DNA of 64,000 nt. Source: Escherichia coli. GTDB taxonomy: Bacteria > Pseudomonadota > Gammaproteobacteria > Enterobacterales > Enterobacteriaceae. Where the stretch lies: NCBI RefSeq assembly GCF_003334355.1, contig NZ_QOWP01000007.1, one strand, 5' to 3'. The notes under the pieces were generated by a model. The model made no database searches and had not been told where the DNA came from. It saw only the letters and a list, made by a program, of their open reading frames with translations. This document shows, piece after piece, positions 26,415-27,230 of this stretch. Each line of letters begins with the position of its first letter. Within the stretch, counting starts at the first letter, position 1. Both the position numbers and the translations under genes were made by a program.

Positions 26415-27230
26415 GTGGCGCGGATAAACCGTATTTCGATCACGCTCTGTGCTTTACTTTTTACCACCCTGCCTTTAACGCCTATGGCCCATGCTTCAAA
26501 GCAAGCCAGGGAGAGTTCTGCTACCACTCATATCACCAAAAAAGCAGATAAAAAGAAAAGCACGGCAACCACCAAAAAGACCCAGAAAACAGCGAAAAAA
26601 GCCGCCAGTAAAAGTACGACCAAAAGCAAAACCGCTTCTTCCGTTAAAAAATCTTCCATTACCGCTTCTAAAAACGCCAAAACTCGCAGCAAACACGCCG
26701 TCAATAAAACGGCCTCAGCCAGCTTTACCGAAAAGTGTACCAAACGTAAGGGCTATAAATCGCATTGTGTGAAAGTCAAAAATGCCGCGTCAGGAACTCT
26801 TGCCGACGCGCACAAAGCGAAGGTGCAAAAAGCTACGAAAGTGGCAATGAATAAACTGATGCAGCAAATTGGTAAGCCATATCGTTGGGGTGGCAGCTCA
26901 CCGCGTACCGGTTTTGATTGCAGCGGCCTGGTTTATTACGCTTATAAAGATTTGGTGAAAATTCGTATTCCGCGTACGGCGAATGAAATGTATCACCTGC
27001 GTGATGCAGCGCCAATCGAACGTAGTGAACTGAAAAACGGCGACCTGGTCTTTTTCCGTACTCAGGGACGCGGCACAGCCGATCATGTCGGCGTGTATGT
27101 CGGCAACGGCAAATTTATTCAGTCACCGCGCACAGGTCAGGAAATTCAAATCACTTCTCTCAGTGAAGACTACTGGCAGCGCCACTATGTTGGCGCTCGT
27201 CGGGTAATGACCCCAAAAACACTTCGCTAA
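26415..27230 (+). CDS. mepH: NlpC/P60 peptidoglycan DD-endopeptidase MepH (YdhO), 271 aa, GTG start
   Basis: Track ORF; signal peptide; Lys/Thr/Ser-rich linker; NlpC/P60 catalytic Cys context DCSGLVYYAY. Confidence 0.9.
   Translation: MARINRISITLCALLFTTLPLTPMAHASKQARESSATTHITKKADKKKSTATTKKTQKTAKKAASKSTTKSKTASSVKKSSITASKNAKTRSKHAVNKTASASFTEKCTKRKGYKSHCVKVKNAASGTLADAHKAKVQKATKVAMNKLMQQIGKPYRWGGSSPRTGFDCSGLVYYAYKDLVKIRIPRTANEMYHLRDAAPIERSELKNGDLVFFRTQGRGTADHVGVYVGNGKFIQSPRTGQEIQITSLSEDYWQRHYVGARRVMTPKTLR

Follow-up and report, generated by a model that had tools for sequence, protein, structure and literature searches.

The gene mepH (ydhO) lies within the window, which is the whole 64,000-nucleotide stretch of an Escherichia coli contig that was analysed (NZ_QOWP01000007.1, assembly GCF_003334355.1). 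Its neighbours are lhr (21067-25683), grxD (25734-26081, on the minus strand) and sodB (27358-27939), and the grxD-mepH-sodB order is also found in Salmonella, Citrobacter, Enterobacter and E. albertii. A 1276-base query spanning the gene was matched in all 5426 complete E. coli genomes at an identity of at least 95%, and the RefSeq feature underlying these matches is 'mepH: peptidoglycan DD-endopeptidase MepH'. Within the encoded protein, NLPC_P60 (PF00877) is the sole Pfam domain (residues 153-263, E = 2.3e-36), and no domain was found in Pfam N-terminal to the low-complexity segment discussed below. The NCBIfam matches are NlpC/P60 models throughout, each falling under its equivalog cut-off, which means that no dedicated MepH model was matched. 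A comparison with Rfam yielded no family within the gene. The genome matches and their annotation, along with the Pfam and NCBIfam results, bear out the name given to this gene in the first-pass annotation. Judged by its profile match, its conserved catalytic Cys and His residues and its locus, MepH is an NlpC/P60 (MEROPS C40) peptidoglycan endopeptidase.

MepH has already been characterised in E. coli, and any database entry for it shows the low-complexity N-terminus. Together with MepS and MepM, it forms a set of three redundantly essential DD-endopeptidases. MepH is dispensable if MepS or MepM is present, and cells that lack both depend on it to grow in LB (PMC8996183). Its DD-endopeptidase activity on 4-3 cross-links is taken here from the introduction of an earlier study (PMC11211486). 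The literature treats MepH as a soluble periplasmic enzyme, and the untagged protein precipitates in vitro. The features of the gene that are relevant to this analysis are collected in the table.

Table. Features of the mepH locus, with positions numbered from the first letter of the window
Feature	Position	Strand	Description	Basis
mepH (ydhO) CDS	26415..27230	+	271 aa, GTG start, stop codon included	ORF list
Predicted signal peptide	26415..26495	+	residues 1-27; n-region MARINR, h-region ISITLCALLFTTLPL, c-region TPMAHA	read from sequence
Overlapping ORF, judged artefactual	26491..26772	+	93 aa, +1 frame of mepH, K/R/P-rich	ORF list
Antisense ORF, judged artefactual	26496..26696	-	66 aa	ORF list
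K/T/S/A-rich polycationic tail, predicted disordered	26496..26720	+	residues 28-102	composition, AF2, FoldIndex
Antisense ORF, judged artefactual	26528..26743	-	71 aa	ORF list
CCAGAAA repeat	26581..26587	+	at 12-nt (QKAS) length polymorphism	alignment with L007
A6 run	26646..26651	+	Lys78-Lys79, frameshift hot spot	alignment of L001-L004 with window
Predicted beta-hairpin	26721..26783	+	residues 103-123, with C108 and C118	AF2 strands 103-109 and 117-123, pLDDT 55-61
Helix alpha1 and NlpC/P60 catalytic core	26784..27227	+	helix alpha1 at residues 129-149	Pfam 153-263; AF2 pLDDT about 90

The protein begins with a standard Sec-type signal peptide, in which a basic n-region and a hydrophobic core of 15 residues are followed by prolines and then by A25-H-A27 located just before S28. 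A lipobox is absent from residues 1-27 on reading of the sequence. This N-terminal region is well conserved, with 81% identity to the E. coli signal peptide among 110 full-length Enterobacteriaceae homologues, and both the A-x-A (AHA) signal peptidase I (SPase I) site and the upstream helix-breaking prolines are kept among MepH orthologues. We infer that MepH is exported via Sec and cleaved at AHA-S, between residues 27 and 28.

At the other end of the protein, D168-C169-S170-G171 and D223-H224 are invariant in 71 aligned sequences. Gln236 occupies the third catalytic position, which is His in a PDB homologue. The PDB homologues MepS, LytE and RipA align from residue 122 onward only, the one exception being a LytE match driven by composition. 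Preceding the catalytic core is a predicted hairpin that, in the AlphaFold2 (AF2) model, sits between the low-complexity segment and helix alpha1. Its consensus (TEKCTxRKGHKxxCVKVK) shows strong column conservation across the MepH alignment. The hairpin is located outside the Pfam match, and only its last two residues (from 122) are within any PDB homologue match. Hairpin, helix and catalytic core (residues 103-271) together carry a charge of about +18, with a pI of 10.1.

Between the signal peptide and the hairpin is the segment that gave rise to this analysis. The interval originally flagged (26490-26720) corresponds to MepH residues 26-102, and the peptide that was quoted from it, KKADKKKSTATTKKTQKTAKKAASKSTTKSK, is exactly residues 42-72. 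Over residues 28-110, the composition is 27% K, 19% T, 18% S and 16% A. In residues 28-102, 61 of the 75 residues (81%) belong to these four types, compared to a background of 26% among the 66 long ORFs of the window (binomial P = 2e-23). The highest K/T/S/A fraction in any 61-residue stretch is 0.85 in MepH, and the runner-up among the long ORFs of the window reaches 0.57. Sequence entropy in 21-residue windows falls to 2.0 bits in this region, compared to about 3.5 in the catalytic domain. The composition counts and the entropy agree with the earlier observation that K, T, S and A dominate residues from about 25 to 100. Tandem repeats were also sought as an origin for this segment, and none were found; the search yielded just two pairs of short direct repeats.

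The segment is as distinctive for its charge as for its complexity. Residues 28-102 have a net charge of +20 and a net charge per residue of +0.27, which is in the polyelectrolyte regime, and lysine outnumbers arginine by 20 to 2. P, G, F, W, Y, L and M are all missing from this stretch, which has only four aliphatic residues and a hydrophobic fraction of 5%. When AF2 was run on an alignment of 71 orthologues and relatives, residues 26-55 and 57-101 received pLDDT values below 50 and were without secondary structure as assigned by DSSP, whereas the catalytic core was modelled at about 90. FoldIndex, a charge-hydropathy measure that is independent of AF2, returned a value of -0.415 for the tail. 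Together with the composition, these two results sustain the proposal that the segment is basic, of low complexity and disordered. The first-pass annotation had named a disorder prediction as the check on this proposal and ordered structure as the outcome that would speak against it; AF2 gave no ordered structure in residues 26-101, and so the disorder stands. A scaling estimate suggests a mean reach of about 7 nm for the tail, with a contour length of about 27 nm. In these respects, the tail is a disordered region of an ordinary kind, in an enzyme that was already known.

Initially, the segment had been described as tethering the NlpC/P60 domain to the signal peptide. This part of the description fits the protein poorly at both ends. 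The N-terminal end carries a canonical SPase I site (AHA, then S28) and no lipobox, and a folded or anchored module was not found there. Since nothing remains N-terminal to the segment once the signal peptide has been cleaved, a tether is a poorer description of it than a free tail. Neither does the segment run straight into the NlpC/P60 domain, because the two-cysteine hairpin intervenes. Therefore, given the predicted cleavage site, the segment is more likely the free N-terminal tail of mature MepH, rather than a linker with an anchored or folded module at each end.

The DNA encoding the tail also carries three overlapping ORFs, which had been dismissed from the outset as artefacts of its biased composition. 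That they are artefactual is upheld by several observations. None of the three has an NCBIfam match, and RefSeq annotates mepH alone at this locus, with none of the three overlapping ORFs. Among six genomes compared, the mepH frame alone is open across the whole tail in all. The +1 frame is broken in three of four other genera (Salmonella, C. koseri and Kosakonia, with E. cloacae as the fourth compared), and the two minus-strand frames are open or closed unpredictably among genera. Moreover, substitutions follow the mepH frame: of the 16 differences between the E. coli and E. albertii tails, 10 are located at codon position 3 of mepH, and only two are at position 1, where the +1 ORF has its third codon position.

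Biased composition as the source of these ORFs holds in full for only one of them. With 43% A, 13% T and T at only 6% of second codon positions, the tail DNA forces the +1 frame open, as seen in all of 2000 codon shuffles of the linker. This fully explains the +1 ORF. In contrast, the minus-strand ORFs are at the level expected of ordinary genes. Three or more alternative frames that are open for at least 66 codons are found at a rate of 21% in the codon shuffles and 19% among ordinary gene segments of 143 codons from the window, and the count of three open frames is therefore unremarkable.

The chance that one of the three ORFs is a real overlapping gene is practically nil. Such a gene would account for alternative frames that stay open for 66-93 codons, and for a synonymous divergence within Escherichia that is lower in the tail (dS 0.23) than in the domain (dS 0.73). 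However, ordinary genes often contain open alternative frames, and the low tail dS is gone in comparisons with other genera. The flanking grxD gene, intergenic region and sodB gene are also equally similar within Escherichia. When added to the lack of family matches and annotation, the broken or erratic frames in other genera and the codon-position pattern that fits mepH, these points leave little room for a second coding sequence. Low synonymous divergence was likewise considered as the mark of either an overlapping gene or an RNA element, and this candidate was rejected given its restriction to Escherichia, the equally alike flanks, the codon-position pattern that follows mepH and the absence of an Rfam family. 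Overall, it is nearly certain that the segment is a disordered tail of MepH and that the ORFs overlapping it are artefacts.

The open +1 frame does have a consequence for databases, in part through the A6 run at Lys78-Lys79. An allele with an extra A in this run yields a MepH protein that is cut short after residue 79 (ending in SSVKKIFHYRF and a stop). The same extra A is the source of a database protein (P0030) and its relatives that start at an ATG in the +1 frame (26491) and then enter the MepH frame. In the assembly collection, this +A allele appears in 39 blocks or more, with neighbouring genes intact at the four loci examined, and it was found in none of 5425 complete E. coli genomes. 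Therefore, the allele is real, but it was rejected as a common lineage marker. Two other proteins (P0013 and P0022), with tails read in the +1 frame, were considered as compensated frameshifts that would prove that charge alone matters. These were rejected as sequencing errors because the neighbouring genes lhr, grxD or ydhP are also fragmented in those assemblies.

The +1-frame peptide is seen in protein databases solely as chimeras from frameshifted mepH alleles. Among such database proteins, some are chimeras that lack the signal peptide, and others keep the signal peptide and carry a +1-frame tail. In effect, because the +1 frame is open, frameshifted mepH alleles and assemblies full of errors can be annotated as intact proteins. 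These chimeras are a small but concrete case of low-complexity regions contaminating protein databases.

Comparative sequence analysis reveals that the tail changes quickly in sequence and little in character. Across the 110 full-length Enterobacteriaceae homologues, tail identity to E. coli is 36%, compared to 86% for the domain, and there are many tail indels between genera. The tails measure 74 ± 11 residues (median 76, range 33-94), with a net charge of +19 ± 3 and a K fraction of 0.24 ± 0.03. When codons were compared with those of six other genomes, dN/dS ratios were 0.16-0.57 for the tail versus 0.03-0.09 for the domain. Judged by these ratios, which are 5-10 times higher in the tail, the tail is relaxed yet under purifying selection. 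Several positions in it, basic ones among them, are conserved, including SxQAR at 28-32, H39, K42, (D/E)(K/R)KKK at 45-49, KT at 71-72, SRR near 91-93 and KTA at 98-100.

Relatives at 41-59% identity, including those from Dickeya zeae, Affinibrenneria salicis and Rouxiella, also have a signal peptide followed by a long polycationic N-terminus that has diverged independently, and one distant MepH relative (P0222) has a tail with AAKK(P/S/T) tandem repeats. In a regular-expression survey of 71 relatives, long polycationic tails were found in proteins of the SPase I type, whereas lipoprotein-type N-termini were short and near-neutral; this classification is crude and some relatives are visibly misclassified, and the comparison of lipoproteins with soluble proteins is thus weak evidence. 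Viewed across genera, this pattern suggests that selection acts on the bulk properties of the tail, namely its length and charge, and not on the order of its residues.

Within E. coli, tail length varies little. A 201-base query covering residues 23-89 was run against the complete genomes, and the 5425 that could be split by identity comprise 3547 at 99% or above, 1875 at 93-94% and three at 95-99%; one further genome gave only a partial match. All 13 records sampled from the 93-94% band span 213 bases rather than 201. The longer form results from a 12-nucleotide insertion (encoding QKAS) that is flanked by a CCAGAAA direct repeat, and it produces a 275-residue allele in place of the 271-residue one. 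The 271- and 275-residue alleles are divided about 65% to 35% among the 5425 complete genomes.

Given these two bands of sampled length, the E. coli tail is essentially length-dimorphic and not hypervariable, despite slippage-prone DNA that holds six A-runs of 5-6 bases plus short direct repeats. The variation in linker length that the first-pass annotation proposed to check in an orthologue alignment is evident between genera (33-94 residues); within E. coli, it amounts essentially to two lengths. In-frame deletion alleles are confined to clusters of one or two members: seven lose 9-32 tail residues, and two more lose 61 residues, from the tail through the hairpin. One deletion of 10 residues fits a repeat pair, ACCGCTTCT, at 26631 and 26661. 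In addition, a 5' deletion has turned mepH into a pseudogene in one complete genome (ST2747).

The conserved length and charge of the tail between genera, together with its near-fixed length in 5425 genomes, argue against a junk sequence. Our literature search found no study of the MepH tail or of its disorder. We propose that the tail might associate electrostatically, and independently of residue order, with anionic peptidoglycan, and we hold this proposal to be plausible, if somewhat short of evenly balanced. In such a mechanism, Sec export and cleavage at AHA-S would free the N-terminus of the tail. The tail would then act as a sequence-independent polycation that makes many weak contacts with the free stem-peptide carboxylates of the peptidoglycan mesh. 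These contacts could hold the non-lipidated enzyme concentrated on its substrate and yet mobile along it, such that the polycationic tail would substitute for the lipid anchor of the paralogue MepS. This polycation model is favoured by the combination of missing hydrophobic docking residues, retention of charge and length, lack of conservation of residue order and an association with non-lipidated relatives. When the disordered tail, the ORF artefacts and the association with peptidoglycan are blended into one explanation, we consider the whole about as apt to be right as wrong.

A more ambitious form of the proposal is that the tail is a selected, order-independent module that steers a soluble 'space-maker' endopeptidase to particular sites in the sacculus, such as gaps or stretched mesh, in place of a MepS-type lipid anchor. 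This form is speculative, and we lean modestly against it. The function of the tail bears on how hydrolases are targeted. The bias for K over R might also arise because carrying a +20 segment through Sec against the membrane potential is costly. Auto-inhibition by the tail is unlikely because the rest of mature MepH is itself strongly positive. The basic character of the catalytic part has another side, in that the extra charge of the tail may be redundant for substrate affinity, which speaks against the polycation model. Conserved tail motifs (SxQAR, D/E-K/R-KKK and SRR) could likewise be specific docking sites, which also runs counter to that model.

Two other roles for the tail are each unlikely. 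In the main alternative, the tail might serve as a regulatory handle for recognition by NlpI and/or Prc, setting the turnover of MepH rather than targeting it to substrate. Prc is known to degrade MepH, with acceleration by NlpI (PMC8996183), and MepS needs its disordered N-terminus, which folds onto NlpI, for binding (PMC11211486). The short conserved motifs within the MepH tail could be read in the same way. However, MepS docks via the hydrophobic residues L24, F31, L34, V35 and V38, and the residue types L, F, M, W and Y are missing from MepH residues 28-102. The position equivalent to the MepS region before helix alpha1 is the hairpin stretch (residues 103-128), which is a better candidate than the tail. 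Furthermore, Prc is a C-terminal-specific protease (PMC11211486) and degrades MepH in vitro without NlpI. Equally doubtful is the idea that the tail is a passive and essentially neutral low-complexity expansion, serving as a spacer or for solubility and upheld by mutational bias and slippage. Its fast evolution, the many indels between genera, the rare isolates with in-frame deletions of 9-32 tail residues (or of 61, including the hairpin) and the dispensability of MepH alongside MepS or MepM (PMC8996183) are all consistent with neutrality, and the A-runs and short direct repeats in the tail DNA would generate indels. Against this stand a tail dN/dS below 1, a net charge and a length that stay within narrow limits across genera, and persistence of the tail in distant Enterobacterales. 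Within E. coli, there are essentially two length classes in 5425 genomes despite the slippage-prone sequence, and deletion alleles occur only in clusters of one or two members.

Membrane attachment of either kind fares worse. An uncleaved signal peptide could anchor MepH in the inner membrane, with the segment acting as a flexible tether that spaces the catalytic domain from it. The hydrophobic core of 15 residues is well conserved and an extended chain of 75 residues could span the periplasm, but orthologues conserve a textbook AHA site for SPase I and its upstream helix-breaking prolines, and MepH is regarded as soluble in the literature; we consider this arrangement highly improbable. The prospect that the tail forms an amphipathic helix on anionic membranes, as a peripheral anchor to a leaflet, can be discounted almost entirely. 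Although the K/A-rich composition without Pro or Gly would permit a helix, none is predicted by AF2. In 31% of shuffles, the maximum helical hydrophobic moment is at least as high as the 0.41 of the tail, and the mean hydrophobicity of the tail is strongly negative, with almost no large hydrophobic residues. Among the roles considered, a sequence-independent polycation that associates with peptidoglycan is thus the reading we prefer.

Several known systems resemble the MepH tail in part. LytE of Bacillus subtilis and p60 (Iap) of Listeria have S/T-rich low-complexity sequence ahead of the same catalytic domain, and both an NCBIfam 'invasion associated endopeptidase' model and LytE in PDB entry 8i2e align through the MepH tail on composition. 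However, in those proteins, the linkers connect the domain to folded wall-binding modules (LysM or SH3), whereas MepH has no folded N-terminal module. The C-terminal domain of histone H1 and AlgP-type tails are K/A/S/T-rich polycations that bind DNA in the nucleus or the cytoplasm. They are similar to the MepH tail in composition and charge density, a purely compositional resemblance from which we draw no homology.

The paralogue MepS (Spr) has a catalytic fold in common with MepH (PDB entries 2k1g, 7v6s and 8xud match residues 145-266). Both enzymes have a disordered N-terminal segment before helix alpha1 and both are Prc/NlpI substrates. In MepS, a lipoprotein, the disordered segment is the first 36 residues, and docking to NlpI is hydrophobic (PMC11211486). 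The MepH tail differs in being about 75 residues in length with a charge of +20, in lacking the docking residue types and a lipid anchor, and in being separated from helix alpha1 by the two-cysteine hairpin.

The B. subtilis proteins PBP1 and RsgI offer a further parallel. Their disordered regions work when scrambled and have been proposed to make non-specific multivalent contacts with peptidoglycan (PMC9732909), and the PBP1 region has been proposed to target gaps or stretched mesh in the sacculus of that organism. These regions are C-terminal parts of membrane-anchored Gram-positive proteins and are backed by scrambling and swap experiments, whereas the MepH tail is the N-terminal part of a soluble Gram-negative hydrolase, is far more lysine-biased and is known here from sequence. 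Nevertheless, all three are exported cell-wall proteins with disordered segments that are poor in sequence conservation and conserved in character. When held to the criteria used for PBP1 and RsgI (PMC9732909), the MepH tail is found to be exported, charged or polar, and low in aromatic and hydrophobic residues, with conservation of disorder rather than of sequence.

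The tail of MepH, which is predicted to be disordered, is rich in Lys, Thr, Ser and Ala and follows the signal peptide, varies in length among natural alleles (positions of the features are collected in the table). A 12-nt indel encoding QKAS, flanked by CCAGAAA repeats (within 701-913 of L007, an E. coli locus carrying the longer allele), divides E. coli into a 271-aa allele found in 3547 genomes and a 275-aa allele found in 1875, and the long form is also present in E. albertii. Further along the tail, two perfect copies of the 9-nt direct repeat ACCGCTTCT are spaced 30 nt apart. 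The database protein P0008, a singleton E. coli allele of 261 aa, lacks precisely the 10 residues that separate these copies, as expected from replication slippage.

A different type of change occurs in an A6 run within the tail, where a natural +A allele truncates MepH after residue 79 (four loci, L001-L004). In this allele, gene callers choose an ATG in the +1 frame as the start. The 246-aa 'putative exported hydrolase' P0030, which lacks a signal peptide, is called from this ATG, and P0124 is a chimera that resembles it. The genes flanking mepH are intact at all four +A loci examined. At least 39 blocks of the assembly collection contain the allele, but none of 5425 complete RefSeq genomes does.

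Two further assemblies, GCA_900448615.1 (L005) and GCA_052953275.1 (L006), carry apparent MepH variants in which the tail is read in the +1 frame before returning to the mepH frame. We considered these as real alleles and rejected them, since the neighbouring lhr, grxD and ydhP genes are fragmented in the same two assemblies, which indicates indel errors. In E. coli ST2747, where mepH carries a pseudogene annotation, a deletion extends from its 5′ UTR into the tail (L008, 2189-2600). In strain WP7-S17-ESBL-04, an IS1A element is inserted between grxD and an intact mepH, upstream of the latter (L015, 316-1013).

Synonymous divergence is reduced at the 5′ end of mepH, with few sites underlying each estimate. 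Compared with Citrobacter and Salmonella, dS is 0.31-0.41 for the signal-peptide codons versus 1.0-1.6 for the catalytic domain (about 3-4-fold lower); compared with Enterobacter and Kosakonia, the values are 0.74-0.75 versus 1.5-2.2 (about 2-3-fold lower). In comparisons within Escherichia, which also involve few sites, the reduction extends over the entire 5′ third of mepH. A scan of the whole window yielded no Rfam match at gathering score in or adjoining mepH. Gene order was compared between the window and four loci (L009, L010, L011 and L014). E. coli and E. albertii have lhr upstream of grxD; in Salmonella, Citrobacter and Enterobacter, rnt adjoins grxD directly, with no intervening lhr.

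Positions of features in the window
Feature	Position	Details
lhr	21067-25683
Sigma-70-like promoter match	26325-26354	TTAACT-18-TAGAAT; about 60 nt upstream of mepH start
Signal-peptide codons	26415-26495
+1-frame ATG	26491	start of P0030
QKAS indel	about 26581/26582
ACCGCTTCT copies	26631-26639; 26661-26669
A6 run	26646-26651	site of +A
Two-cysteine hairpin	26721-26783	residues 103-123
Gln236 codon	27120-27122
Terminator-like hairpin	27234-27263	strong, 13-bp stem; directly 3′ of mepH stop
Rfam matches at gathering score (STnc550, two tRNAs, HPnc0260 antisense RNA, RydB, RprA)	29506-29896 (-); 38488-38642 (+); 38607-38769 (-); 56762-56822 (-); 62426-62533 (+)

The tail is separated from the catalytic domain by a conserved two-cysteine beta-hairpin, TEKCTxRKGHKxxCVKVK, which falls outside the Pfam model and almost wholly outside every PDB homologue match. 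This hairpin may be stapled by a disulfide, and by its position it is a better candidate than the tail for binding a partner. Within the catalytic domain, the NlpC/P60 catalytic triad has Gln236 at its third position. This residue is nearly invariant in the MepH group, whereas an aligned PDB homologue, 7cfl, has His here.
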